13,794 nt of DNA from Armatimonadia bacterium. Its GTDB lineage: Bacteria; Armatimonadota; Zipacnadia; Zipacnadales; UBA11051. The DNA is taken from contig JBDKRC010000275.1 in NCBI GenBank assembly GCA_039683575.1, positions 1 through 13,794 of the forward strand. The letters run 5' to 3'. Position 1 is the first letter of the stretch; each line of letters starts with the position of its first letter. A program made the position numbers and the translations under genes. Positions 129-13,794 of the stretch are shown one piece after another. The notes beneath the pieces were generated by a model. The model did not search any database. It was not told where the DNA came from and worked only from the letters and a program-made list of their open reading frames with translations.

Positions 129-396
129 GAGGGTTGATCGGGGATGGCGGGTGCGGGTGGGATGCCGTGCGACGCGGGTTGAGGGAGGCGAGAGGGTGGT
201 CGGAGATGACGGATGGCCGGGTACGAGCCCCGGCCCTACAGCGGAGGGTTGGTGGCTGCGGGTGGGATGCCCGTGCTACGCGGGTTGGGGGAGGGCGGGA
301 GGTTGGTCGGAGATGACGGCCGGCCGGGTACGAGCCCCGGCCCTACAGCAGAGGGTTGGTCGGTGATGGCGGATACGGGTGGGATGCCCGTGCTAC
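129..396 (-). repeat. BIME-like mosaic of two alternating GTAG-type REP elements with a conserved linker
   Basis: Read on the minus strand, type A is GTAG-GGCCGGG-GCTCGTA-CCCGGCC (215-239 and 322-346, identical). Type B is GTAG-C-ACGGG-CATCCCA-CCCG(T/C) (259-279, 375-396, and a degenerate copy at 154-173). The order is B-A-B-A-B, separated by variants of GAGGGTTGGTCGG(A/T)GATG(A/G)CGG. A GTAG tetranucleotide followed by a palindrome is the established signature of RAYT-associated REPs. Confidence 0.75.
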
Positions 397-663
397 GCGA
401 GGTTGAGGAAGAGGAGGAGGAGGTTGTTGAACTTGGTGAAGATGACGCTCGTCAACCAAGGCGTGCGGGCCTTCCTCTTTGGGACCGTATTGTCCAGGAT
501 CACCCGATTTCCCCGTTTCTTCTGGTATGCGCCTGGTTGTCCCTGGCGGAGTCTCTGGATGGGCGCAAGTTGTGGTCAGGCCGAGTTTGGAGTACTCCAC
601 CACAGGGAATACGCGAGGTACACGCCATTCCCGGGGGGACTTCTGCAACCCAAGGTCTGGGGT

Positions 664-668
664 GGAGG
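664..668 (+). promoter_or_regulatory. Ribosome-binding site for CDS1
   Basis: GGAGG lies 6 nt upstream of ATG 675, which opens a signal peptide. Confidence 0.75.
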
Positions 669-674
669 CTCCTT

Positions 675-3600
675 ATGTCATGTCGAGTTCGTATCGCCCT
701 CTGTGTACTGCTCCTCGTCGTGTCTTCCTCTTCTTCCTCGTGGGCCAAACGTAGCCGCCCGGTGCGGGTGAGCGGTCCTGCTTACCGTTCCGGTGAGGTG
801 ATCGTCGGCTATCGCCAGGCCGATATGGTCAAGGCTCTCGGCAAGGCGCAGTCTGAGTATGGCGCGTCGACTGTGAGGTCGGTGCCCAGTCTCCATTTCA
901 GCCTGATGCGCAGCGCGCAGGCCACGCGCGACATCCACGGGTTCTGCCGGGCGCTGAAGAAGATCCCGGGCGTGCGGTATGCCGAGCCCAACTACCGGCG
1001 GCAGGTGCTGCTGGCCGACCCCAATGACCCGGCTTACATCAATGTGGACAGCCTGTATGCGCCGCTGGACCCGGACATTGATCCGAGCGACTACACCTGG
1101 TACCAGTGGGGCCTGCATCAGATCGAGGTGCTGGGCGCCTGGAGCATCTATCCCGGGACCTACTATACCTCTCTGACCAAGCCAGGCGGCGGGCCTAAGA
1201 TCGCAGTGGTGGATACGGGAATTGACGTCGGCGGGACGGACAGCATCCCCCACCCGGACTTCATCAATGCCGGCGGGACCAGTTGCGACGCGGCGTTGGG
1301 CGGGCAGATTGATATCGCCGATAGCCGGAACGTGATCTCCGGGGGCACACCCAGCAACTTCGCGGATGACTTTGGGCACGGGACGGCGGTGGCCGGGGTT
1401 ATCGGAGCCTCGACCAACAACGGCGGGAGCGGCGACGGCGAGGGCATTGCCGGGCTTGCCTACAACTGCCAGTTGGTATCGATCAAGACGTTTGACAACA
1501 CCGGCAATGGCACGGCAGCGGACACCGCGAGCGCTATCCTGTGGGCGGCTGACCACGGGGCGCTGGTGGTCAACATCAGTGCGGGTGACGTGTTCTACTC
1601 GCAGGCGGAGCAGGACGCGGTGGACTACGCCTGGGAGCATGGGACGCTGGTGGTCGCGGCGGCGGGGAATGAGGGCGACGGGGCCAACCGCACGTTCTAC
1701 CCGGCGGCATGCAATGGGGCGTTGGGCGTCGCGGCGACCGACATGAATGACTCCGCGGCAAGCTACTCCAACACGGGTGAGTATGTCGGCATCTCCGCGC
1801 CCGGTGGTGATGTCTCCTACTTCCCGCTCGGGGCGTGGCTGATCTGGACCACGTTGCCGACTGAGGACGTACCGCTCAAGCAGTTGAGCTACCCGGACAC
1901 GGGGATGTATTCGTATGAGACGGGCACCTCGATGGCTTGTCCCTTCGTCGCGGGACTGGCCGGGCTGTATGCGTCGCGGTTTGGCATCACGCAGGGGACC
2001 GCGGGCGGGGTGCTGAGGATGTATCAGGCGTTGCAGCGCGGGTCGGAGAATGCGGCGGGGATTGCGGGCTGGAGCCCGAACTGGGGCTGGGGGCGCATCA
2101 ACGCCCAGCAGACGCTGATGGACGCGAACTACCGCGGCTCCAGCGTCGGGTGCATAACAGGACAGTTGATCTATATCGACACGGTTGCGCCGAATAAGGA
2201 AGTGCAGGCGAAGGTGGCGGGGACCAGCACGGTGGTGGCGACCACGACCACGCGGTCAGACGGGATGTTCCGTTTCGCTAACCTGACGCCGGGCAACTAT
2301 GACCTCACTGCTACCTACTTCGGCCAGCCCGGGCTGGTGTCCAATGTGCCGGTGATCGCTTCGGCGGACACGCCGCATGTGGAAATCCTGATCGGCGGAG
2401 ATACCAACGATCCCCCGACCCCCCCGAGCAGCGTGAGCATCTCTCCTGCCGAGCCGAGCGGAGATGACAATCTGGTAGCCACGGCCGAGGGCAGCCTTGA
2501 CCCGGATGGCACGACGCCGAGCTATCTGTATGAGTGGTCCAAGTGGGACTCGGGTTTGGGCGACTGGGGCGCGTGGGGTAGTCCGGGGCGAACTCTGGAC
2601 AAGAGCAAGACGGCTCCGGGCGATCAATGGAAGGCTCGCGCGCAGGCGACAGACGGCCAGGCGGCGAGTATCTGGGTCGAGAGCGCGTCGGTGACAGTCA
2701 GCAATGCCACGCCAACGGTGCCCACGAAGGTTACCATCACACCTGCCAAGCCCACCGGGGATGACAATCTGACAGCCACGGCCCAGGGCAGCACCGATCC
2801 GGATGGCACGACGCCGACCTACGGTTACGAGTGGTCGAAATGGGATCCTGACACGAGCCTCTGGAGCGAGTGGGGCTATGCCGGGGCCATCATAGACAAG
2901 AGCCTGACGGCTTCGGGGGAGAAGTGGAAGGCCCGGGCGAAGGCTACTGACGGCAGCGCGTCCAGCGCATGGCTGGAGAGCGCGTCGGTGACCATCGACA
3001 ACACCGCGCCGACGGCTCCGACCACGGTGACAATCAGCCCCTACATGCCGGGCCGGGAGGATATGAAGGCGACGGCGAGTGGCGCGGCGGACCTCAACCA
3101 GGACACGCTGACCTACCAGTACCAGTGGTCGAGGAAGGGGCCTGATGGCGTCTGGGAGGGCTGGATTTACAAGGGCGACACTCTCGCCGGGGCCTACGTG
3201 CGGATTGGCGAGACGTGGGGAGTGAGGGCGCGAGCGTATGACGGCAGCGTCTACGGGCCCTGGAAGCTCGCCGCCACGCGGATCTACAACATGGCGGGCG
3301 TGACGCCGGCGCCGAATACCTATGGGGTGCCGGTGACGACGACAGTCTTCGCAAGTTTCCGTTGGCCGGTGCGGCAGTCTACGGTGACGACGCGCGTGCA
3401 ACTGAAGCTGGGGACGACGAGGATCATCCCAACCGTGATGACATGGGTCACGGCGGAGCGGAAGGTGAAGCTGAGACCGAAGACAGCACTGCTGCCGAAT
3501 ACCTACTATCGGATCAACATCGATCCAGGCATCGTGTGCACCAGCGGGCGCGTGCTGGGGTGGGGTGAGAACTACTGGTTCAAGACCGCGGCGGCAACGA

Positions 3601-3887
3601 CTACGGCGAGCGTGAGTGTCGCCGCGGCGCCGACGGCGGCGGGAGCGCAGGTGACGGTGAACCTCAGCGCGGCGGCGACGGTGCGAACAATGATCTGCAA
3701 TCTCGCGGGACGAGTGGTGGCACAGTTGGCGGAGCGAGACCTGCCGGCGGGTGTGAATAGCCTCGTGTGGAATGGGAGGGGCAACAATGGGACAAGGGTG
3801 CCGGCGGGGAGCTACCTGGTACGAGTGGAGGCAAAGGGCGCGGAAGGTCAATTGACTTGCGCGATGGTGGCGGTGCAGATGCGGTGA
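675..3887 (+). CDS. Secreted S8 (subtilisin/thermitase-like) serine peptidase, 1070 aa: propeptide, catalytic domain, carboxypeptidase-regulatory-like domain, 3 Ig-like repeats, Big_5-like domain, FlgD_ig-like C-terminal domain
   Basis: Signal peptide MSCRVRIALCVLLLVVSSSSSSWA. Propeptide-like GEVIVGY...VRYAEPNY. Catalytic triad: IAVVDTG (Asp 1212-1214), GHGTAVAG (His 1377-1379), GTSMACP (Ser 1929-1931). Oxyanion motif AAAGNEG (Asn 1668-1670). Followed by ITGQL...TTTRSDGMFRFANLTPGNYDLTA. The track start at 213 only reads through the REP array. Confidence 0.93.
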   Translation: MSCRVRIALCVLLLVVSSSSSSWAKRSRPVRVSGPAYRSGEVIVGYRQADMVKALGKAQSEYGASTVRSVPSLHFSLMRSAQATRDIHGFCRALKKIPGVRYAEPNYRRQVLLADPNDPAYINVDSLYAPLDPDIDPSDYTWYQWGLHQIEVLGAWSIYPGTYYTSLTKPGGGPKIAVVDTGIDVGGTDSIPHPDFINAGGTSCDAALGGQIDIADSRNVISGGTPSNFADDFGHGTAVAGVIGASTNNGGSGDGEGIAGLAYNCQLVSIKTFDNTGNGTAADTASAILWAADHGALVVNISAGDVFYSQAEQDAVDYAWEHGTLVVAAAGNEGDGANRTFYPAACNGALGVAATDMNDSAASYSNTGEYVGISAPGGDVSYFPLGAWLIWTTLPTEDVPLKQLSYPDTGMYSYETGTSMACPFVAGLAGLYASRFGITQGTAGGVLRMYQALQRGSENAAGIAGWSPNWGWGRINAQQTLMDANYRGSSVGCITGQLIYIDTVAPNKEVQAKVAGTSTVVATTTTRSDGMFRFANLTPGNYDLTATYFGQPGLVSNVPVIASADTPHVEILIGGDTNDPPTPPSSVSISPAEPSGDDNLVATAEGSLDPDGTTPSYLYEWSKWDSGLGDWGAWGSPGRTLDKSKTAPGDQWKARAQATDGQAASIWVESASVTVSNATPTVPTKVTITPAKPTGDDNLTATAQGSTDPDGTTPTYGYEWSKWDPDTSLWSEWGYAGAIIDKSLTASGEKWKARAKATDGSASSAWLESASVTIDNTAPTAPTTVTISPYMPGREDMKATASGAADLNQDTLTYQYQWSRKGPDGVWEGWIYKGDTLAGAYVRIGETWGVRARAYDGSVYGPWKLAATRIYNMAGVTPAPNTYGVPVTTTVFASFRWPVRQSTVTTRVQLKLGTTRIIPTVMTWVTAERKVKLRPKTALLPNTYYRINIDPGIVCTSGRVLGWGENYWFKTAAATTTASVSVAAAPTAAGAQVTVNLSAAATVRTMICNLAGRVVAQLAERDLPAGVNSLVWNGRGNNGTRVPAGSYLVRVEAKGAEGQLTCAMVAVQMR
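2406..3287 (+). repeat. Three tandem Ig/cadherin-like coding repeats (module A) in CDS1
   Basis: NDPPTPPSSVSISP (2406), NATPTVPTKVTITP (2703) and NTAPTAPTTVTISP (3000) recur with a 297-nt (99-aa) period. Each has D-x-(D/N)-x...Y-x-Y-x-W...W-x-x-RA-x-A-x-DG. Confidence 0.85.
3000..3887 (+). repeat. Shared C-terminal cassette, copy 1 (other copies 5622-6512, 7974-8855, 12944->13794)
   Basis: All four proteins share SFRWPV, W(V/A)TA(E/N)RK(V/I)KL, WGE(N/D)YWF(K/E)TA, GAQ(V/L)TVNLS(A/S)AATVRT(V/M)ICN(I/L)AGRVVA and LVWNG(R/K)G..G.(K/R)VPAG(T/S)YLVRV(E/D)A.GAEG. Confidence 0.92.
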
Positions 3888-3910
3888 GTGTGGCTGGCGG
3901 GCGAGAGGAC

Positions 3911-3945
3911 ACAGGCGCAGCCAGATGGCTGCGCCTGTTTGGTTC
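3911..3945 (+). terminator. Putative intrinsic terminator after CDS1
   Basis: Perfect 12-bp stem ACAGGCGCAGCC/GGCTGCGCCTGT with an AGAT loop, followed by TTGGTT (weak U-tract). Confidence 0.65.
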
Positions 3946-4139
3946 TGGGGGTAGGAGAGTGCCTGTCGGGGCGAGGGCAGGAGAATGCTCACTAAAGTGG
4001 CAGGAAAAGGGAGGGATGAAGGGTGTTCTGACGAAAGAACGAGCCTGTACCATTTGAAAGGGGGTATAGCTCGTTAGGCGGGAGGTAGCAGTATCTGAAA
4101 ACAGTCTCACGGACGGGGCCCTAACCGGGTCCGCAACAG

Positions 4140-4144
4140 GGAGG
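4140..4144 (+). promoter_or_regulatory. Ribosome-binding site for CDS2
   Basis: GGAGG lies 7 nt upstream of ATG 4152. Confidence 0.75.
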
Positions 4145-4151
4145 ACAGTTT

Positions 4152-6512
4152 ATGGGCAGGTCATACGTTGTCTTGGCTGTATTGCTGGTGACAATGCTGG
4201 TATGTGGCGCGGCGTTGGGCGCTACGATCAATGTCCCGACAGACTACACCACCATCCAGGCCGCCATTGATGCGGCAAGCGATGGGGATACGATTATCGT
4301 AGGGCAGGGGACGTACAAGGAGAACCTTGATTTCAAGGCGGCCGCAATCACACTGACAAGCACCGACCCCAACAGCAGCACCGTTGTGGCACGTACGATC
4401 ATTGACGGGCAAGACCTGGGTCCCGTCGTGAAGTTCGTTTCCGGTGAGATGGCTAACTCGGTTCTGACTGGCTTCACCATTACCAATGGTACCGCCACAA
4501 ATGGCGGAGGCATACTCTGCGATGCTTCATCTCCGACCATCAGCAACAACCGCATCCGGCTCAACAAGGCTACTTCGCGCGGGGGGGGCATTTGCTGTCT
4601 TACTGGGTCGGCTCCGAAGATCACCGCGAACAACATTTCCGGGAATACGGTCGACAGTGGCGGAGATCCCTCGGTCTTCGGTGGCGGCATCTACTGCCGC
4701 AATTCCTCAGCCGAGATCTCTAACAACACAATCATGGGAAACAGCGCGGTTGCGTACGATGACTGGCCCTATGAAAATGGTGCTGCGTGTGGCGGGGGCA
4801 TTACGTGTAGCGGGGGCACACCCTTGATCTCTGCGAATGTGATCACCTCCAATAGCGCCTCCGGCCCGATAGAGAGCCTCGGTGGTGGCATCTACCTGCA
4901 GTCGGCGTCTGGCGCCCTCGTAATCGGGAACACCATCAGCGGCAACACCGCACCTGCCAGCAGCGGCGACAACTATGGTGGCGGCATCTGTCTCCAGGGT
5001 TCACCATCCAGGATCGAGAGCAATGTGCTTGACGGCAACTCTGGCCGGCGGGGTGGTGGCATCTTCTGCGACGGCGCCTCGGCGGCCCCTGTAACCGGCA
5101 ATGTGCTCCTCAACAACGCCGCCAGCGAGGCGGGCGGAGCCATCTGCAGCGAGGCCTCGGCAGTCATCACCAACAACACCTTCCGCGCCAATTCAGCCCC
5201 GGCGGGCGCCGGGGGAAGCATCTGGTGCGCGGCTGCCAGCCCACAGATCAAGAACTGTATCGTCGCCAGTTCCGCAGGCGGGGGAGGCATCGGAGCCTCC
5301 GCGTCCTCGACGCCGAATGTGTCCTATTGTGACGTCTGGGGCAACACTGGCGGCGAGTATGTGGGGCTGACCGACCCGAGCGGCACCAATGGCAATATCA
5401 CGCGGGACCCGCTGTTCGTCAGTCCCGCCACCGGCGACTTTCGGCTCAAGTCCCGTGCAGGGCGCTGGAATGGCACCGCGTGGGTGAATGATACCGTCCT
5501 GAGCCCCTGCATTGATGCCGGCGATCCCGCGTCACCGTTCGCGAATGAACCGACGCCCAACGGCGGGCGGGTCAACATGGGCTATGACGGCAACACGGCG
5601 TTCGCGTCCAAGACGCCGCCGAACTCCGCGCCGCTGGCCCCCACAACCGTGACGATCACTCCGGTCGTGCCCGGTCCGGAGGACCTTACCGGCCACGCCA
5701 GTGGCGCCACTGATGTGGACGGGAACGCCATAGCCTACAGGTACCAGTGGGCGAAGAAGAAGGTGGACGGGACCTGGGACCGGTGGAGCTATACCGGCGA
5801 AGTCCTCCCGAAGGCCAGGATCCTCCTTGGTGAGACCTGGAGAGTCCGGGCGCAGGCCTATGATGGCGCCCTGTACAGCGCGTGGACGATGGGCCCGAGC
5901 ACTGCTATCCTCAACATGGCCGGAGTGACCCCCGCCCCGAAGACCTACGGGGTGCCGGTGACGGCCTGTGTGTTCGCGAGTTTCCGGTGGCCTGTGCAGC
6001 CGGCGTCCGTGCCAACGCGAGTGCAGCTCAAGATTGGGACGAGGGTCATTCCGACGGTTCTGTCCTGGGTGACGGCGGAGCGGAAGATCAAGCTCCGGCC
6101 CAAGACCGCCCTGGTACCCAACACGTTCTACCGCGTCAACTTCGATCCGGGGATCGTGCGCCTCATTGACGGGCGGACCATTGGCTGGGGTGAGAACTAC
6201 TGGTTCAAGACCGCCCCGGCGGCGTCATCGTCGGCTGTCTCAGTGGCGGCAACGCCCACAGCTTCCGGCGCGCAACTGACGGTGAACCTCAGTGCGGCGG
6301 CGACGGTGCGGACCGTGATCTGCAACATCGCCGGTCGGGTGGTCGCAGAACTGGCGGAGCGAGACCTGCCGGCGGGTGTGAATAGCCTCGTGTGGAATGG
6401 CAGGGGTAACGGCGGGAGCAAGGTGCCGGCGGGGACTTACCTGGTGAGGGTAGAGGCGAAGGGGGCTGAGGGTACGCAGACAACAGCGGTGACGTCGCTG
6501 CAGATACGGTAG
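4152..6512 (+). CDS. Secreted right-handed parallel beta-helix (pectin-lyase-fold) protein, 786 aa, with the shared Ig + Big_5-like + FlgD_ig-like tail
   Basis: Signal peptide MGRSYVVLAVLLVTMLVCGAALG-A. N-cap TINVPTDYTTIQAAIDAASDGDTIIVGQGTYKEN. Repeated GGGI-x-C...P-x-I-x-x-N-x-I-x-x-N coils. C-cap DPLF...GDFRL...SPCIDAGDP...PNGGRVNMG. Shared tail from 5622. Substrate and activity cannot be determined. Confidence 0.88.
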   Translation: MGRSYVVLAVLLVTMLVCGAALGATINVPTDYTTIQAAIDAASDGDTIIVGQGTYKENLDFKAAAITLTSTDPNSSTVVARTIIDGQDLGPVVKFVSGEMANSVLTGFTITNGTATNGGGILCDASSPTISNNRIRLNKATSRGGGICCLTGSAPKITANNISGNTVDSGGDPSVFGGGIYCRNSSAEISNNTIMGNSAVAYDDWPYENGAACGGGITCSGGTPLISANVITSNSASGPIESLGGGIYLQSASGALVIGNTISGNTAPASSGDNYGGGICLQGSPSRIESNVLDGNSGRRGGGIFCDGASAAPVTGNVLLNNAASEAGGAICSEASAVITNNTFRANSAPAGAGGSIWCAAASPQIKNCIVASSAGGGGIGASASSTPNVSYCDVWGNTGGEYVGLTDPSGTNGNITRDPLFVSPATGDFRLKSRAGRWNGTAWVNDTVLSPCIDAGDPASPFANEPTPNGGRVNMGYDGNTAFASKTPPNSAPLAPTTVTITPVVPGPEDLTGHASGATDVDGNAIAYRYQWAKKKVDGTWDRWSYTGEVLPKARILLGETWRVRAQAYDGALYSAWTMGPSTAILNMAGVTPAPKTYGVPVTACVFASFRWPVQPASVPTRVQLKIGTRVIPTVLSWVTAERKIKLRPKTALVPNTFYRVNFDPGIVRLIDGRTIGWGENYWFKTAPAASSSAVSVAATPTASGAQLTVNLSAAATVRTVICNIAGRVVAELAERDLPAGVNSLVWNGRGNGGSKVPAGTYLVRVEAKGAEGTQTTAVTSLQIR

Positions 6513-6537
6513 GAGCGTAAAGGCGGGGCAAGTCCAG

Positions 6538-6572
6538 CAGGCGCGGCTTTGGTGGCCGCGCCTGTTTGGTTT
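6538..6572 (+). terminator. Putative intrinsic terminator after CDS2
   Basis: 10-bp stem CAGGCGCGGC (6538-6547) / GCCGCGCCTG (6555-6564), followed by TTTGGTTT. Confidence 0.65.
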
Positions 6573-6677
6573 GTGTCGCGGTCGGGGAGGGTGACTGTAA
6601 CAGCTTTGTCACAAAACGGCAGGAGTTGGTCTCTAAGGTCACGAACTAGATTGGTAATCTGTTACGAGGTATAGTGC

Positions 6678-8855
6678 ATGTCCTACCCCAAAGTCGCGCC
6701 GCGTCTCTTGTCTGCGTTCGTGCTGTCGTTAGGGCTGCTCGTGGGGGCGTGGGCGGGGACGACCACTCGCGTTAGCGTATCCAGCGGCGGGGCGCAGGCC
6801 AATGATCAGAGTAGATACCCTGTCATCAGCAGCGATGGCCGCTATGTGGCCTTTGAATCCTACGCCGGTAATCTCGTGGCTGGCGATACCAATGGCGGGT
6901 GGGATGTGTTCCGGCATGACCGGACGACAGGGCAGACCATGCGGCTGAGCGTGACCGCCGCGGGCACACAGGTTTTCGCGCCCAGCTACGACCCGCAGAT
7001 TACCGCGGATGGGCAGTACGTGGCGTTCATGTCCACCTCGCAAGACCTGGTCGCCAATGACAACAACGGTTGGAACGACATCTTCCTGCGCAGTTGCTTG
7101 TCCGGGAGCGTCTCGCTCATCAGTGTGGCAACTTCGGGCGCGCAGGGGAATGACGACAGCAGCGAACCCTCGATCAGCGCCGACGGGCGGTATGTGGCTT
7201 TCACATCGTTGTCTACGAACCTGGTGAATGCCGATACCGCGGTGCCCGGCCAGGTTTACGTGCGGGATCTGGTGGGGCACACCACCACACGGGTGAGCGT
7301 GTCGAGCGCGGGGGTGGCGGGTGACGGCTGGAGTCATGTGCCGTCGATCAGCCCGGATGGGCGGTATGTGGCGTTCCAGTCCGAGGCCACCAATCTCGTG
7401 CCGGGTGACACGAACGGGAAGTGGGACATCTTCGTGCATGACCGCAGCACGGGCACCACGTCGCGGGTGAGCGTGTCTACCGGCGGGACGCAGGGCAACT
7501 GGGATAGCTGGGAGCCATCGATCAGCAAGGATGGGCGCTATGTGGCGTTCGAGTCGGGCGCGAGCAACCTGGTGTCCGGCGACACGAACAGCGTGTGGGA
7601 TGTGTTTGTGCGCGACCGGGTGTCCAATGTGACGACCCGGGTGAGCGTGAACGAGACGGGCGGGCAGGGCGCGTTTGAGAGTGTGAGTGCCTCCATCAGC
7701 CCCGATGGGCGATATGTGGCGTTCGCGTCGGAGGCGTCGCTGGTGACGGGGGACACGAACCAGAGCCAGGACGTGTTCATCCGCGACCGGGTGGCGAACC
7801 AGACGAAGCGGCTGAGCCTTAACACCGCCGGGACGCAGGGCAATGGTGCCAGCGGGCGTCCGGCGCTGAGCGCGAACTCGCGATGGATCGCGTTTCTCTC
7901 CATTGCCAGCAATCTCGTAACGGGGGACACCAATGGCGTGGAGGATGTCTTTGTCCGCGATACCGGCGCTGTGAATGCACTGCCGACTGCGCCGACGACG
8001 CTGACGCTCAATCCCTCGGCGCCGGGCCGGGAGGACATCAAGACGATAGTGGGCGGCAGCACGGATGCCAACGGCGACAAGCTCACGTACCAGTGCAAGT
8101 GGGCCAAGCAGAACGGCGACGGAACCTGGGGGGCGTGGTCCTATACCTCGCGAACTCTGCCGGCGGCGCAGGTGGCAATCGGGCAGACCTGGCGGGTGCG
8201 GGCGCGGGCGTATGACGGCATCGGCTACGGGTCCTATGGCGCTATCAAGACCTTCACGATCGTCGGCCTGGGTGGCTTCACGCCGGCCCCCAGCACGCGC
8301 GGCGTGGCGGTGAGCACGTGCATGTTCGTGAGCTTCCGCTGGCCGGTGAAGCAGTGCTCGGTGACCAGCCGGGTGCAACTGAAGCGGGGAACGACGGTGG
8401 TCCCGACGACCATGACGTGGGTGACGGCTGAGCGGAAGGTGAAGCTGCGGCCGAAGACGCCGCTGCTGCCGGGCACGTACTACCGCATGAACGTCGATCC
8501 CGGCATCGAGTGCACCAGTGGCCGAGTGCTGGGGTGGGGCGAGAACTACTGGTTTGAGACGGCAGCCAGCTCCGGCGCGGTGTCCGTGGCGGCAGCCCCA
8601 ACGGCAGCGGGCGCACAGGTGACGGTGAACCTGAGCGCAGCGGCGACGGTGCGGACGGTGATCTGCAACATCGCCGGGCGAGTGGTGGCGGAGTTGGCGG
8701 AGAGGGAGCTGCCGGCGGGCTTGAACAGCCTGGTGTGGAATGGCAGGGGTAACGGCGGGAGCAAGGTGCCGGCGGGGACTTATCTGGTGAGGGTAGAGGC
8801 GAAGGGGGCTGAGGGTACGCAGACAACGGCGGTGACGTCGCTGCAGATACGGTAA
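6678..8855 (+). CDS. Secreted TolB-like (PD40/WD40-like) beta-propeller protein, 725 aa, with the shared Ig + Big_5-like + FlgD_ig-like tail
   Basis: GAGGT RBS at 6666-6670. Signal peptide MSYPKVAPRLLSAFVLSLGLLVGAWA. Seven repeats of P-x-IS-x-DGRYVAF-x-S...NLV-x-GDTN...DVFVRD. Shared tail from 7974. Not a true TolB: no TolB N-terminal domain and no tol-pal neighbours. Confidence 0.9.
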   Translation: MSYPKVAPRLLSAFVLSLGLLVGAWAGTTTRVSVSSGGAQANDQSRYPVISSDGRYVAFESYAGNLVAGDTNGGWDVFRHDRTTGQTMRLSVTAAGTQVFAPSYDPQITADGQYVAFMSTSQDLVANDNNGWNDIFLRSCLSGSVSLISVATSGAQGNDDSSEPSISADGRYVAFTSLSTNLVNADTAVPGQVYVRDLVGHTTTRVSVSSAGVAGDGWSHVPSISPDGRYVAFQSEATNLVPGDTNGKWDIFVHDRSTGTTSRVSVSTGGTQGNWDSWEPSISKDGRYVAFESGASNLVSGDTNSVWDVFVRDRVSNVTTRVSVNETGGQGAFESVSASISPDGRYVAFASEASLVTGDTNQSQDVFIRDRVANQTKRLSLNTAGTQGNGASGRPALSANSRWIAFLSIASNLVTGDTNGVEDVFVRDTGAVNALPTAPTTLTLNPSAPGREDIKTIVGGSTDANGDKLTYQCKWAKQNGDGTWGAWSYTSRTLPAAQVAIGQTWRVRARAYDGIGYGSYGAIKTFTIVGLGGFTPAPSTRGVAVSTCMFVSFRWPVKQCSVTSRVQLKRGTTVVPTTMTWVTAERKVKLRPKTPLLPGTYYRMNVDPGIECTSGRVLGWGENYWFETAASSGAVSVAAAPTAAGAQVTVNLSAAATVRTVICNIAGRVVAELAERELPAGLNSLVWNGRGNGGSKVPAGTYLVRVEAKGAEGTQTTAVTSLQIR
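6756..7965 (+). repeat. Seven 58-aa beta-propeller blade repeats
   Basis: The DG(R/Q)YVAF codons start at 6834, 7008, 7182, 7356, 7530 and 7704 (exact 174-nt period). NSRWIAF starts at 7875. Confidence 0.88.
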
Positions 8856-8882
8856 GAGCGGGTTACGGGGGTGAGATTGGAC

Positions 8883-8919
8883 AGGCGCGGCCTTTGGTGG
8901 CCGCGCCTTTTTTCGTTTT
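8883..8919 (+). terminator. Intrinsic terminator after CDS3
   Basis: 10-bp stem AGGCGCGGCC/GGCCGCGCCT with a TTTGGT loop, followed by TTTTTCGTTTT. Confidence 0.8.
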
Positions 8920-9007
8920 GGGGGAGGGCAAGACAGGAAGTAGAAGAAGAACGCCGAATAGTCGTGCTGTTGTGGTTATTCTGCCTATTGAGGACGGGGA
9001 GTTTTTC

Positions 9008-12000
9008 ATGAGAAGGTTCGTAGGTATTGGTCTCGTCGCTCTGCTGGTGCTGTTGGCTATCGCCAGCCCGTGCTTGTCGGCTGGCCGCAACAAGTACCTT
9101 GTCAGGAGCATCCTGCAGGGGGGAAGAGTGGTGGATGAGCGCACGACGCCGGTTTTGCCGCCCCCGTACCGTGTGCCGGCGGTGAAGCGCCCTCTGCCCA
9201 ACAAGAGCCGCGGCGTGAACATACTCAGCAACGTCCCGGCCCTGAAATGGTGTTTCGGGTGTTCAGCAACGTCCGCCGCGATGATGTTTGGATACTATGA
9301 CGGTAACGGCTTCCCGAGCATGTACACCGGGCCAACGAATGGCGGAGTGTTTCCCCAGAATAACTCAGCGTGGCCGAACGTCAGCATAGGCGGCGAGGCG
9401 CGGAGCCAGTGCCCGCTCAGCGCAACGCGGGATGGACTGGACGGGCGAGTCGGCCGGGGACATGTTGATGACTATTGGATAGTGTCGAACGATGCGGGCC
9501 CTGACCCGTGGATAGCCAACGGGTGGACGGAGCATAATTGGGGCGACTGCACCGGCGATTACATGGGCACCAGCCAGTCGGCGTGGAGCAATATTGATGG
9601 CAGTACCACGTTTGTGTACTACAACGACGGCAGCCCAACGTATGACTATACGCTTGGAGAGGGCAGTGGCACGAAAGACGGCTGTCATGGGATGAGGGCC
9701 TTTGCGGAGTCGCGAGGGGCGACGGTGGAGGCCAACTTCAACCAGTACATCGATACGGAGGTCCCTGGCGCAGGCTTCACGTACGCGCAGTACATGGCGG
9801 AGATAGACGCCGGGCGTCCGGTGCTGATCCAGGTGGACGGCCACACGATGCTCGGCGTGGGGTATGACGACTCGACCAATACCGTGTACGTGCACAATAC
9901 GTGGGACTGGGACTTGCACACGATGACGTGGGGGGGATCGTATGAGGGTATGGGGCACTACGGCGTGACGGTGCTGCGTCTGCAGCAATCAAATCCCGTG
10001 CCGCAGATCAGCCTCTCGATTAACAACGGCGCGGCCAGCACTGACACTCTGGGCGTGACGCTGAATCTGAGCCAAAGCGGCGGAGGGGCACCGACCGAGG
10101 TGCGGTTTGCCAATGATGTCGGTGGCAGCCCGGGAACATGGACGAGTTGGGCGTCCTGGACATCGAGCCGATCCTGGAACCTCGTCGCCGGCAACTATGG
10201 CACGCGAGGAGTGTGGGCTCAGGCGCGCAACGCGGCCGGTGAAGGCAGCACAACGTATGATGACATTCTCTATCAGACTTCGGTGACGGTACCGCTGATC
10301 GACCTCTCGATTAACGACGGCGCGGAGAGCACCGAGAGCCTGGGCGTGACCCTCAACCTGAGCCCGAACGGCGGGGGCGCACCCACCGAGGTGCGCTTTG
10401 CCAATGATGTCAGCGGCAGTCCGGGAACATGGACGAGCTGGGAGGCCTGGACCTCGAGCAGAACATGGAACCTCGCGGCTGGCGACTTCGGTACGCGTGG
10501 AGTCTGGGCGCAGGCGCGCAATGCAGCGGGCCCAGGCTACACAGCGTATGATGGCATTGTCTATCAGACTTCGGTGACGGTGCCGTTCATCAGCCTCTCG
10601 ATCAACGACGGCGCGGACAGCACTGAAAGTCTGAGCGTGACGCTGAATCTGAGCCAAAGCGGCGGAGGGACGCCGACCGAGGTCCGTTTCGCCAACGACA
10701 CTGACGGCAGTCCGGGAACCTGGTCTACGTGGCAGGCGTGGGGTACGTCGAAGTCATGGACGCTGGCTCCGGGCGGCAACGGCACGCGGTGGGTCTGGGC
10801 ACAAGCGCGTAACGCCGCCGGCCCAGGCAGCACAACGTATGATGGCATTCTCTACGAGGCCTCGGTGACGGTACCGGAGATCGGTATCTCTATCAACAAC
10901 GGTGACAGCACGACCTCGAGTCTCGATGTGACTCTGGGGCTATGGCAGAGCGCGGGCGGCAGCCCGACAGAGGTGCATTTCGCGAACGACAATGGCGGCG
11001 CCCCCGGAACGTGGTCTACGTGGCAGGCGTGGGGTACGTCGACGTCATGGACGCTGGCTCCGGGCGCAGGCGGCACGCGTAAGGTCTGGGCCCAGGCGCG
11101 TAACAGCGTCGGCACGGGCGGCAGTACCTCAGACACGATCGACTTCCAGGGCGTGACTGAGCCTACGGCACCCACCAAGCCAACGGTGGTGGCCGTCAGC
11201 CCCTCTACGCCCGGGCCCGAGGAGTTGAGCGCTGCCGCCAGCGGTTCCTGGGACGCCAATGGCGACGCTGTTACGTACCAGTATCAATGGTCGAAGAAGG
11301 CTGCGGACGGGTCGTGGGAGGGCTTTACCTACAACGGCCAGACCCTGGCGGCAGCCAATGTACACATGGGCGAGACGTGGGGAGTGAGGGCGCGGGCGTC
11401 CGATGGCAGCCTGTATAGCGGGTGGACCGTCGCGACGAGTGTGACTATCGTGGGCATGGCGAACTACACGCCCGTGCCGAAGACCCGCAATGTGCCGCGG
11501 ACGGCCAGCGTCTTTCTCAGCTTCCGCTGGGCGCCGGTGAAGTCATCCGCGGTAGCGAGGGTAACGCTGACGCAGGCCGGTGAGATCGTGCCGGTTACCG
11601 CGCTTTGGGTCAGCGATAAGAAGCTCAAGCTTACCCCGCGGACGCTTCTCAAGCTTGATTCTGACTACCGGATGAACATTGCCCGCGGTGTGCGATGCGT
11701 CAGCGGCAGGGTACTGGACTGGGAGGAGAAGTACGCCTGGTTCCACACGGCCCCGGCGGGCTCGCCGACCGCGCCAACCTCGATCGCGATTAGTCCAGCT
11801 ACCCCCGGACCAGAGACACTGGTAGCGACGGCCAGCGGGGCAACGGATCCCAACGGCGATGTGATTACGTATCAGTACCAGTGGTCGCCGAGGAATGCGG
11901 ACGGAACCTTCGCGGGATGGGACTACAGCGGGGGGACGCTTCCCGGTGCGTACCTGCGCATCGGCGGAACCTGGGGTGTACGGGCGCGCGCCTTCGACGG

Positions 12001-13794
12001 CTTCACCTCCAGCGACTGGTTCACCAGTACTGTGACCCCGGTCAGCATGGCGGGCTATAGCCCTGAGCCAGGGGCGCGCAACATCGCGCGCACTGCGGCC
12101 GTGTTCATCAGTTTCCGCTGGACGCCGGTGAAGTCTTCGGTGGAGTCACGCGTAAGGCTCTTGCACGGGACCACAATCGTCCCGACGTCGCTGAGCTGGG
12201 TGAGTGACAGGAAACTGAAGCTGCGGCCCAGGGACATGCTTGAGGTCAGCAAACTCTACCGGGTGCAAATCGCCAGCGGAGTTGAGTGTGTCGGGGGCCG
12301 GGTGCTCAACTGGGAAGAGACGCACGCGTACTTCACGACCGCGCCCGCAACGGCGCCGACCACGCCGACGCTGGTCACCATCAGCCCGAGCAGCCCGGGG
12401 CCGGAGGACCTGTTCGCTTCCGCCAGTGGTTCGACTGACCTCAACGACGACCCGCTTTACTACGAGTACCAATGGTCGAAGAAGAAGAGCGACGGGAGCT
12501 GGGAGGGCTGGAACAACAGCGGAGACCTCCTGCCGACCGGAAGAGCAAAGATTGGGGAGACGTGGGCGGTGCGAGCGCGAGCGAATGACGGCACGGCGTC
12601 CAGCTCGTGGAGGATCTCCGATCCGGTAACGATCACCAGCATGGCAGAGTATCTGCCCGCACCGGGAGCGCAGAACGTACCCAGGACGGCCCCTGTCTTC
12701 ATCAGCTTCCGTTGGATGCCGGTGCACTCGTCAGCGGAAGGTCTGGTGGAGCTGCGGCAGGGCAGTACAGCCATCCCGGTCACGATGACCTGGGTGAATG
12801 ACAAGAAGCTGAAACTGCAACCGAGGTCTCTGCTGCAGGTTGACACCGAGTACTGCGTCTACATCGGCGCCGGACTGGAGTGCGCCAGCGGCCGCCTGCT
12901 CAGTTGGAGCGAGTCGTATGCCACCTTCCGAACGGCATCTGCCACGCCGCCGACGATGCCGACCGTGGTCGCGATCAGCCCCGAATCGCCAGGGCCGGAG
13001 GTCTTGCACGCTTCGGCCAGCGGCTCGACTGACGCGAACGGTGACACCATCACCTATGAGTACCAGTGGTCCAGGGTCTGGGCGGAGGACGGCTCCTGGG
13101 AGGGCTGGGACTACAGCGGCAACACGCTGCCCGCGGCGGTCCTGACGATTGGCGAGACCTGGGGCGTGCGGGCACGGGCCTTCGATGGGACGCTGTATAG
13201 CTCCTGGAAGAGCGCGAGCGTGACCATCACCAACATGGCCGGCGTTACGCCGGCCCACAGGACGTACGGCGTGCCGGTGACGACCGCAGTGTTCGGCAGC
13301 TTCCGCTGGCCGGTGCAGCAGTCCACGGTGACCACGCGAGTTCACCTCAAGCGCGGCACCGTCGAGGTGCCGGTCACCATGAGTTGGGCAACGGCGAACC
13401 GGAAGGTGAAGCTCCAGCCTAACGCGCCGCTGCTGCCGGCAACGTACTACCACATTATCTTCGATCCGGGCATCGTGTGCAGTGACGGCCGCGTGCTGGG
13501 CTGGGGCGAGGATTACTGGTTCAAGACCGCGGGGACTGCGGCGACTGCGGTAACTATCGCCGCGGCGCCGACCTCGCTGGGGGCGCAGGTGACGGTGAAC
13601 CTGAGTTCGGCGGCGACGGTGCGGACGGTGATCTGCAACATCGCCGGACGGGTTGTGGCGCAGTTGGCGGAGAGGGACCTACCGGCGGGCTTGAGTACGC
13701 TGGTGTGGAATGGGAAGGGGAGCAGTGGGACGAAGGTGCCGGCAGGAACTTATCTGGTGCGGGTGGACGCCATGGGAGCGGAGGGGACGCAGGC
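9008..13794 (+). CDS. Secreted papain-fold (clan CA; C10/C39-like) cysteine peptidase, >1595 aa, 3'-truncated by the window edge: 4 'INNGA' Ig-like repeats, 4 (Ig + Big_5-like) pairs, FlgD_ig-like C-terminal domain
   Basis: Translated by hand; I found no in-frame stop from ATG 9008 to the window end. GGGGAG RBS at 8996-9001. Signal peptide MRRFVGIGLVALLVLLAIASPCLS-A. Catalytic motifs: WCFGCSATSAAMMFGYY (Cys85, 9260-9262), EIDAGRPVLIQVDGHTMLGVGYD (His279, 9842-9844), VYVHNTW (Asn297, 9896-9898). Ends ...GTYLVRVDAMGAEGTQ, about 10 codons short of where the paralogs stop. Confidence 0.88.
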   Translation, partial: MRRFVGIGLVALLVLLAIASPCLSAGRNKYLVRSILQGGRVVDERTTPVLPPPYRVPAVKRPLPNKSRGVNILSNVPALKWCFGCSATSAAMMFGYYDGNGFPSMYTGPTNGGVFPQNNSAWPNVSIGGEARSQCPLSATRDGLDGRVGRGHVDDYWIVSNDAGPDPWIANGWTEHNWGDCTGDYMGTSQSAWSNIDGSTTFVYYNDGSPTYDYTLGEGSGTKDGCHGMRAFAESRGATVEANFNQYIDTEVPGAGFTYAQYMAEIDAGRPVLIQVDGHTMLGVGYDDSTNTVYVHNTWDWDLHTMTWGGSYEGMGHYGVTVLRLQQSNPVPQISLSINNGAASTDTLGVTLNLSQSGGGAPTEVRFANDVGGSPGTWTSWASWTSSRSWNLVAGNYGTRGVWAQARNAAGEGSTTYDDILYQTSVTVPLIDLSINDGAESTESLGVTLNLSPNGGGAPTEVRFANDVSGSPGTWTSWEAWTSSRTWNLAAGDFGTRGVWAQARNAAGPGYTAYDGIVYQTSVTVPFISLSINDGADSTESLSVTLNLSQSGGGTPTEVRFANDTDGSPGTWSTWQAWGTSKSWTLAPGGNGTRWVWAQARNAAGPGSTTYDGILYEASVTVPEIGISINNGDSTTSSLDVTLGLWQSAGGSPTEVHFANDNGGAPGTWSTWQAWGTSTSWTLAPGAGGTRKVWAQARNSVGTGGSTSDTIDFQGVTEPTAPTKPTVVAVSPSTPGPEELSAAASGSWDANGDAVTYQYQWSKKAADGSWEGFTYNGQTLAAANVHMGETWGVRARASDGSLYSGWTVATSVTIVGMANYTPVPKTRNVPRTASVFLSFRWAPVKSSAVARVTLTQAGEIVPVTALWVSDKKLKLTPRTLLKLDSDYRMNIARGVRCVSGRVLDWEEKYAWFHTAPAGSPTAPTSIAISPATPGPETLVATASGATDPNGDVITYQYQWSPRNADGTFAGWDYSGGTLPGAYLRIGGTWGVRARAFDGFTSSDWFTSTVTPVSMAGYSPEPGARNIARTAAVFISFRWTPVKSSVESRVRLLHGTTIVPTSLSWVSDRKLKLRPRDMLEVSKLYRVQIASGVECVGGRVLNWEETHAYFTTAPATAPTTPTLVTISPSSPGPEDLFASASGSTDLNDDPLYYEYQWSKKKSDGSWEGWNNSGDLLPTGRAKIGETWAVRARANDGTASSSWRISDPVTITSMAEYLPAPGAQNVPRTAPVFISFRWMPVHSSAEGLVELRQGSTAIPVTMTWVNDKKLKLQPRSLLQVDTEYCVYIGAGLECASGRLLSWSESYATFRTASATPPTMPTVVAISPESPGPEVLHASASGSTDANGDTITYEYQWSRVWAEDGSWEGWDYSGNTLPAAVLTIGETWGVRARAFDGTLYSSWKSASVTITNMAGVTPAHRTYGVPVTTAVFGSFRWPVQQSTVTTRVHLKRGTVEVPVTMSWATANRKVKLQPNAPLLPATYYHIIFDPGIVCSDGRVLGWGEDYWFKTAGTAATAVTIAAAPTSLGAQVTVNLSSAATVRTVICNIAGRVVAQLAERDLPAGLSTLVWNGKGSSGTKVPAGTYLVRVDAMGAEGTQ
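9998..11150 (+). repeat. Four tandem 97-aa Trp-rich Ig-like repeats in CDS4
   Basis: Consensus SIN(N/D)G...ST..L.VTL.L...PTEV.FAND..G.PGTW..W..W.....W.L..G..GTR.VWAQARN..G. The I-N codons start at 10019, 10310, 10601 and 10892 (exact 291-nt period). Confidence 0.88.
11162..13528 (+). repeat. Four tandem (module A + module B) di-domain repeats in CDS4
   Basis: The SFRW motif starts at 11519, 12110, 12704 and 13298 (periods 591, 594, 594 nt). Each is preceded by a PT-x-P...SP..PGPE.L.A.ASG..D.N.D...Y.YQWS...G.TW.VRARA.DG domain. Confidence 0.88.

Follow-up and report, generated by a model that had tools for sequence, protein, structure and literature searches.

A strictly terminal FlgD_ig-type domain on diverse secreted proteins of Armatimonadia, a candidate sorting or attachment signal related to type IX secretion C-terminal domains

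Why do four secreted proteins with unrelated heads, encoded in tandem, all end in the same domain? The question is posed by a 13,794-nucleotide stretch of contig JBDKRC010000275.1 from an Armatimonadia bacterium (GenBank assembly GCA_039683575.1), analysed here over its whole 13.8 kb and called the window throughout. At a G+C content of ∼64%, it holds four genes on the + strand and nothing else recognisable: g1 (675-3887), for a secreted S8 subtilase (Peptidase_S8, 145.6 bits in Pfam), g2 (4152-6512), for a secreted NosD/right-handed β-helix protein (Pfam), g3 (6678-8855), for a secreted PD40 β-propeller protein (Pfam), and g4 (9008->13792), for a secreted C39_2-like cysteine peptidase of papain fold, whose 3' end is open, the window edge cutting inside the last domain ∼10 aa short of the stop. 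Each product ends in a tail of three modules, which we term A, B and C. The answer that we favour, with a probability of roughly 55%, is that module C is a sorting or attachment signal shared among Armatimonadia and working like the type A C-terminal domain (CTD) of the type IX secretion system (T9SS).

The four tails lie at 3000-3884, 5622-6509, 7974-8852 and 12944-13792 and are 62.5-68.4% identical over 280-294 shared columns. A sequence-only reading of this locus, made without database searches, had described a subtilase, a β-helix, a propeller and a peptidase in tandem on such shared tails, and open reading frames (ORFs), Pfam assignments and alignment all agree with it. Its papain-like peptidase was likewise borne out (g4 scores 28.2 bits on Peptidase_C39_2 in Pfam, against a cut-off of 24), and so was its view of the heads as unrelated, signal-peptide-bearing parts joined to a common C-terminal module, in that the heads fall into diverse Pfam families and all four N-termini pass a leader test. 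That reading also took the tail to be a constant three-domain unit in the order A-B-C. By module hidden Markov models (HMMs), this order closes each of the four genes, yet copies of A and B are also met ahead of the tail, giving A-A-A-B-C in g1 and (A-B)x4-C in g4 (local HMMs), and the unit itself dissolves among relatives, which end in ABC, AAC, BC, BBC, AC or C alone. Of the three modules, C alone is constant and strictly terminal, and its position at the extreme C-terminus is seen in all three window genes that are complete. Chance similarity is excluded by the E-values of the module HMMs, which range from 1e-17 to 1e-60. The observation of the sequence-only reading is thus confirmed, while its interpretation, a tail that targets the proteins to a common destination, is partly supported by what follows.

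Conservation rises steadily towards the end of the proteins. Identity between the four tails is 45-59% in A (∼98 aa), 64-76% in B (∼100 aa) and 77-94% in C (∼91 aa), which is preceded by an Ala/Ser/Thr-rich linker that is compatible with cleavage, yet offers no evidence for it. Nei-Gojobori estimates between the window tails show synonymous divergence (dS) to be alike in A, B and C (0.51-1.19), with nonsynonymous divergence (dN) falling from 0.35-0.53 in A through 0.15-0.28 in B to 0.03-0.13 in C, so that the strongest purifying selection of the three modules acts on C. Since dS in C is comparable to that in A and B, the conservation of C reflects selection and not just recent conversion, and gene conversion as its sole cause is ruled out; the g2-g3 pair, with the lowest dS (0.51), is the exception.

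The tail occurs far beyond these four genes. With that of g2 as the query, a word-indexed search returned 44 proteins, every named one of which comes from an Armatimonadia or Armatimonadota bacterium metagenome-assembled genome (MAG), and a search with C only among longer proteins gave 56 matches, whose named carriers are again Armatimonadia or Armatimonadota. Near-identical counterparts of g1, g2, g3 and g4 are encoded on other contigs (P0006, P0007, P0017, P0005), and P0006, encoded in an Armatimonadia MAG, shares 97% identity with g2 over the tail. When 1.84 billion representatives were searched exhaustively with the A-B-C profile, 11745 of them matched at E<=1e-3; the number is 1419 at E<=1e-10 and 181 at E<=1e-30. 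These counts take in matches to any one of the three modules. Three pairs of relatives have longest contigs of the same length (P0010 and P0011, both 38411 bp; P0015 and P0030, 13989 bp; P0008 and P0188, 10822 bp), which suggests that tandem clustering recurs.

When the three module HMMs were mapped on 182 retrieved proteins, C was found in 138, of which 130 have exactly one copy, and this single C ends at most 3 residues from the end of the protein in 130 of 130 cases, 3 of them fragments cut inside C. The strictly terminal position that had been expected of C therefore holds wherever the module is single, and it does so behind varied arrangements of the other two: the last modules are ABC in 47 proteins, AAC in 44, BC in 14, BBC in 11, C alone in 10 and AC in 4. 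The terminal residue is also biased, being R in 102 and K in 9 of these proteins (111/130 basic). The other modules vary both in position and in number, from 0 to >30 copies for A and from 0 to 12 for B; very long A arrays are found in P0049, P0063, P0074 and others, among them a protein of 4766 aa with >30 A copies followed by B-C and arrays of 9-18 copies in proteins without C. The 44 retrieved proteins without C have A arrays or B arrays only.

The carriers of these tails were expected to bear signal peptides, and most of them appear to. We applied a crude leader heuristic, which looks for K/R followed by a 10-aa window with a mean Kyte-Doolittle hydropathy >=2.0; besides the N-termini of g1, g2, g3 and g4 (4/4), it was applied to the 91 relatives whose sequence begins with M and whose first module is preceded by >=60 aa. 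Of these, 76 pass and 15 fail, and several of the failures look like mis-called starts or fragments. Ahead of a C tail, we found S8, NosD/β-helix, PD40, C39_2, M6, cadherin-like, NHL/SGL and DUF1080 heads, and a Pfam census of 44 representatives yielded 44 families, including C1, C11 and C14 peptidases, lectins and NHL propellers. FlgD_ig was matched by 42 of the 44 representatives, and 'choice-of-anchor C' by 2 of 32 heads. Seen from the side of the heads, relatives of the PD40 head of g3 form a very broad family from several phyla and, among the 120 matches listed, carry SLH (PF00395) in 3 cases, dockerin (PF00404) in 1, RTX repeats (PF00353) in 2 and FlgD_ig in 1 (P0021), and Por_Secre_tail in none. 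The PD40 head is thus joined to different add-on modules in different lineages, which weakly supports a 'choice of anchor'. Several of these PD40 proteins carry PKD modules.

To which known domains is C related? It passes the FlgD_ig family (PF13860) with 37.6-43.2 bits in whole proteins and 45.9-46.8 bits alone (cut-off 27). A genome scan with the whole-tail alignment confirmed no locus; a second one, with one word pattern from C, taken from an 11-row alignment of close sequences, led to six loci, at all of which the match stands at the end of an ORF. The first, L001, is from an Armatimonadetes MAG and is 48% identical to C; the five others, at 35-39% identity, belong to two Cloacimonadota, one 'Bacteroidetes', one Thermoanaerobaculia and one unclassified genome. 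Four of these (L002-L005), of the type found in the Fibrobacteres-Chlorobi-Bacteroidetes (FCB) superphylum, score 36.5-45.1 bits on the T9SS type A family TIGR04183 (cut-off 23) and L006 scores 22.2; the three FCB-type CTDs that were tested reach 31-40 bits on PF18962 and 36.5-47.7 bits on FlgD_ig (cut-off 27 for both). The Armatimonadota C domains score 42-47 bits on FlgD_ig, and the L001 tails have no match to TIGR04183 at E<=1e-3. In a profile-profile comparison by hhalign, six Armatimonadota C domains align with five FCB-type CTDs over 71 columns with a probability of 98.8%, an E-value of 7.5e-17 and 38% identity, around a common core of N-x-x-G-[RQ]-x-V ... G-x-N-[ST]-L-x-W-N-G ... G-x-Y. 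C is thus homologous to the T9SS type A CTD, in line with the likeness to known sorting domains that the sequence-only reading had seen in the arrangement.

Searches with a wider set of proteins and with structures point the same way. Among 32 diverse C-bearing proteins, at E<=0.01, the CTD end of PorU was matched by 17, TIGR04183 by 10 and the PorZ end by 7; FlgD equivalogs were matched by all 32, in their immunoglobulin (Ig)-like part only. In the ESM Atlas, by features and by structure, C has as its neighbours clusters that bear the label FlgD_ig, alone or together with Por_Secre_tail, and those with Por_Secre_tail or FlgD_ig tails superimpose on the Atlas model with template-modelling (TM) scores of 0.83-0.95 by query. 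Their recorded members are mostly from Bacteroidota, Cloacimonadota, Fidelibacterota, Ignavibacteriota, Krumholzibacteriota, WOR-3 and Armatimonadota, and one such neighbour is a PorU-like Peptidase_C25 cluster.

Like type A CTDs, then, C closes proteins that bear leaders and differ widely in their heads, and it often has a basic last residue; it measures ∼85-90 aa and is probably a β-sandwich. FCB CTDs in turn pass FlgD_ig too. Unlike them, the Armatimonadota domains remain under both curated cut-offs, have the PNPF-type motif replaced and have named carriers in Armatimonadota, outside the FCB superphylum. Because C does not reach the cut-offs, we do not file it under TIGR04183 or PF18962. 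With FlgD (PF13860; 7eh9, 7bhq, 3c12, 3osv), it shares a score above the Pfam gathering threshold, but the proteins of the window are enzymes with Sec-type leaders and not flagellar; FlgD carries its Ig domain as an insertion within a Tudor-like domain and not at the C-terminus. The T9SS type B CTD (CHU_C, PF13585) is likewise a terminal Ig-like signal domain, and some type B CTDs of C. hutchinsonii are labelled FlgD_ig superfamily in the accessible text of PMC11611037; C matches CHU_C weakly, at 14-18 bits, far under the cut-off of 27, whereas FCB type A control CTDs score 26.8-28.2 bits. Dockerin, SLH, PEP-CTERM and LPXTG systems also place one terminal module behind many heads, but have no relation to C in sequence or fold, and C is a folded domain of 91 aa and not a short transmembrane tag.

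The two modules that precede C appear to behave as spacers or stalk elements and not as parts of the signal. Module B passes Big_5 (PF13205), with 32.3-37.8 bits in g1-g3 (cut-off 23.6) and 114.5 bits over 4 stretches in g4. Module A, of which three copies were tested, has no match to any Pfam family even at E<=10, the PKD models PF00801 and PF18911 included; its structural neighbours, by an ESM Atlas model of this protein, are PKD-bearing clusters (TM 0.77-0.82), and in the PDB it has one weak match, to the 99-residue chain 4xed_A ('Peptidase M14, carboxypeptidase A'; E 0.2). By its modelled fold, A therefore looks like a PKD-like, uncatalogued repeat family.

How the family came to combine one tail with so many heads is suggested by the 3' ends of the genes and by the tail tree. 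Downstream of g1, g2 and g3 are terminator-like hairpins on the + strand, at 3911-3938 (12-bp stem), 6536-6566 (13-bp stem) and 8883-8908 (10-bp stem), all G+C-rich, with a T-tract, 24-28 nt past the stop and mutually related in sequence. As each of the three genes has its own hairpin, they are separate transcription units; and as related hairpins stand behind each tail, the duplicated unit was the tail together with its terminator. Tail and terminator seem to move jointly as a 3' cassette, and the family may have spread by duplication of this cassette and its recombination with new heads. In a quick IQ-TREE analysis of 33 tails, with branch support from the Shimodaira-Hasegawa-like approximate likelihood-ratio test (SH-aLRT) only, head labels from Pfam, and rows with unknown or partial heads left out (e.g., P0014, P0023-P0025, P0035, P0036), tails group by lineage and not by head: the tree requires 11 changes of head label, against a minimum of 7, and the β-helix label alone changes at least 5 times on starred branches. 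C39, β-helix, NHL and PD40 tails come together in one clade (97% SH-aLRT) with end branches of 0.03-0.10. Such a tree would fit homogenisation or conversion within genomes, or a lineage-specific partner with which the tails co-evolve.

The envelope in which these proteins are made is described as diderm: lipopolysaccharide genes and BamA are reported for Armatimonadetes in the accessible text of PMC5629042, and OmpM in that of a preprint (bioRxiv 10.1101/2021.05.31.446380). Secreted proteins of these bacteria therefore need a route across the outer membrane. The sequence-only reading had noted no machinery gene in the window, and Pfam scans of the four genes and of six further ORFs agree. In the flanks of L005 and L006 we likewise saw no T9SS machinery, no search with T9SS component sequences having been made there. 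Two large C-tailed genes, one of them β-helix-headed, stand in tandem at 2143-6180 and 6125-10273 of L001; their neighbours are a URO-D-like gene and a RyR/TPR/cyclase gene. Apart from incidental co-mentions, a literature search found no paper that joins Armatimonadota to T9SS or to FlgD_ig tails as signals.

We read C as a sorting signal because it is strictly terminal, has a conserved end, is under the strongest constraint, is homogenised lineage by lineage and has T9SS CTDs among its relatives. In the mechanism that we propose, the four genes would encode Sec-exported extracellular proteins built from a head, a stalk and a terminal domain. The head, be it a protease, a β-helix or a propeller, would be the working part, and the stalk, in which Ig-like modules A (PKD-like) and B (Big_5) are strung together in varying numbers, would distance it from its C-terminal holder. 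After Sec export, C would be recognised in the periplasm by one outer-membrane export or attachment machine common to all these proteins, and would then be either removed or kept as the surface anchor of the protein; recognition by the machine, passage through the outer membrane and cleavage or anchoring are the steps that we infer by analogy with T9SS. A further proposition, more tentative and in our estimate somewhat worse than an even bet, is that Armatimonadia, which belong to the Terrabacteria, run a CTD-dependent crossing of the outer membrane or surface attachment, either by a T9SS that extends beyond FCB, through old inheritance or transfer, or by an unrecognised machine that reads a terminal domain of the FlgD_ig type.

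A number of results weigh against taking C for a sorting signal. On TIGR04183 (cut-off 23), module C of g2 alone stops at 21.0 bits and the whole of g3 at 16.9, and on PF18962 (cut-off 27) three of five Armatimonadota C domains score 12.6, 14.4 and 14.6 bits and the other two have no match. The N-terminal strand of the FCB domains, of the PNPF type ('PNPFNP-x-T'), is 'A-P-T-x-x-G-A' in Armatimonadota, and the FCB loci had been fished by a word from C, so that this word is shared by construction. By sequence, C is closer to FlgD itself, with up to 38.8 bits on a FlgD equivalog, although the cut-offs of these models (230-383) are not reached; the best PDB matches of the tail profile are the FlgD structures 7eh9 and 7bhq (E ∼3e-7, best 2.4e-7), and no solved T9SS CTD appeared in the PDB sequence search at E<=1. 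C-like domains can, moreover, be plain repeats, as 8 of the 138 C carriers have 6-12 tandem copies (P0082, P0106, P0112, P0117, P0121, P0142, P0165 and P0176), and in 6 of the 8 the last C-like copy lies 20-452 aa from the end. One structural neighbour cluster has recorded members mostly from Actinomycetota and consists of NAGPA phosphodiester glycosidases, 69% of whose members have FlgD_ig; Actinomycetota are classically a monoderm phylum, and FlgD_ig tails may there exist with no outer membrane to cross. As for a machine, no gene for one was seen in the window or in the 14 kb of L001, where no query with T9SS components was run, and no PorU-like Peptidase_C25 head occurs among the C-bearing proteins in the Pfam matches listed, which for the census of representatives cover 25 of its 44 families. 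Armatimonadota, finally, lie outside the FCB superphylum, for which SprA/T9SS and TIGR04183 are described as specific in the accessible text of PMC12611786 and PMC4737851.

Several of these points would be expected if C were a structural or adhesive Ig-like domain, binding glycans or stabilising the stalk, whose place at the end is a by-product of the copying of the 3' cassette and which no dedicated export or attachment machine reads. Both T9SS-tail cut-offs are failed, FlgD_ig is also found in a mostly Actinomycetota cluster, C-like domains form internal tandem arrays in 8/138 proteins, and no machinery was seen in the window or L001 (with no T9SS-component search made); the homogenisation of tails within lineages, and a duplicated unit that takes in the related terminator hairpin behind the coding sequence, fit such a domain as well. 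Copying of the cassette accounts for ABC tails, but not for a C that stays terminal in AAC, BC, BBC and AC tails or when it stands alone. A purely structural role also leaves unexplained why the last residue is R or K in 111/130 proteins and why dN in C is 3-10 times below that in A at similar dS, and the domains outside the phylum to which C is closest serve as sorting signals and are likewise terminal. On balance, we find this explanation unlikely, though it deserves to be taken seriously.

The logic of many heads on one terminal module is equally that of a dockerin, and C might plug the enzymes non-covalently into a surface scaffold or S-layer protein equipped with fitting receptor domains, as in a cellulosome, with no part in crossing the outer membrane. 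Dockerin domains do occur in two C-bearing S8 proteins, P0197 and P0199, and PD40 heads elsewhere bear SLH, dockerin or RTX modules (3, 1 and 2 of the 120 matches listed). This is improbable all the same: we saw no candidate for the scaffold, C is unrelated in sequence to dockerin and SLH, its relatives being secretion CTDs and FlgD, and a route through the outer membrane would be required in any case. We give hardly any credence to the idea that the similarity of the tails is an artefact of chimeric assembly, collapsed repeats or chance. Repeated 3' ends in a metagenome-type assembly could mislead an assembler, but between the tails 12-43% of nucleotides differ, according to the module and the pair compared, and dS is 0.5-1.2, so that they are not collapsed copies; each gene, furthermore, has its near-identical counterpart on a separate public contig, and the reading frames are open throughout. 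The reading of C as a T9SS-like sorting or attachment signal thus remains the one that we prefer.

All four genes have a Shine-Dalgarno-like GGAGG or GAGG upstream of the start; leader cleavage sites were placed by eye only. The ORF of g1 opens at 213, but its leader (675-746) begins with M155 at 675, behind a GGAGG. A prodomain of the fervidolysin type (∼765-992) is followed by the S8 domain (1185-2000), whose translation shows the D/H/S motifs VVDTGID, HGTAVAG and GTSMACP, and by a CarboxypepD_reg-like domain (2187-2369). Three A modules then stand in tandem at 2406-2705, 2703-3002 and 3000-3290 (local HMM E-values of 1.6e-17, 5.6e-22 and 6e-50), ahead of the Big_5 Ig-like module B at 3291-3593 (Pfam and local HMM) and the FlgD_ig-type module C at 3612-3884 (FlgD_ig 46.2 bits), which ends in VQMR. 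In g2, a leader at 4152-4220 and a head at ∼4254-5522, which also has a Disaggr_assoc (disaggregatase-related) region, lead to modules A (5622-5915), B (5916-6218) and C (6237-6509; local HMM). In g3, the leader (6678-6755) precedes a propeller at ∼6756-7973 with a blade period of 174 nt, followed by A (7974-8267), B (8268-8567) and C (8580-8852). The longest of the four, g4, has a leader at 9008-9082, a head at ∼9083-9997 and then four tandem repeats of 291 nt (97 aa) at 9998-11161, 74-82% identical in DNA, one copy of which was tested and has no Pfam family; the stretch 9008-11160, head and repeats together, has no PDB relative by sequence. Its A-B pairs lie at 11162-11755, 11756-12346, 12347-12940 and 12941-13534, and its C, as far as the window reaches, at 13550-13792 (local HMM).

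Around these genes, the six antisense or upstream ORFs of the window have no Pfam match, and in an Rfam scan of the window no family reached the threshold. Upstream of g1, a G-rich stretch contains a 90-nt direct repeat at 176-265 and 283-372, with 83% identity between the copies, which sits in the probably non-coding 5' extension of ORF 213-3887 and has no Rfam or Pfam match.

Were C only structural, the finding would shrink to a lineage-specific family of domain shuffling. If Armatimonadia do run a CTD-dependent route of the kind proposed above, the sorting signals would gain in C a new class specific to one phylum, and module A, with its PKD-like fold, would be a new, uncatalogued stalk domain. 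In the accessible text of PMC12611786 and PMC4737851, T9SS and the C-terminal signal that goes with it count as a hallmark of FCB, and here a relative of that signal sits in an almost uncultured diderm phylum, which leaves two outcomes: either T9SS-like export ranges wider than thought, or a new machine awaits discovery. MAGs of Armatimonadia could be screened with an HMM of module C, which would pick out their extracellular and surface proteome, with its proteases, β-helix proteins and lectins, and would, through phylogenetic profiling, give a handle on the partner genes.

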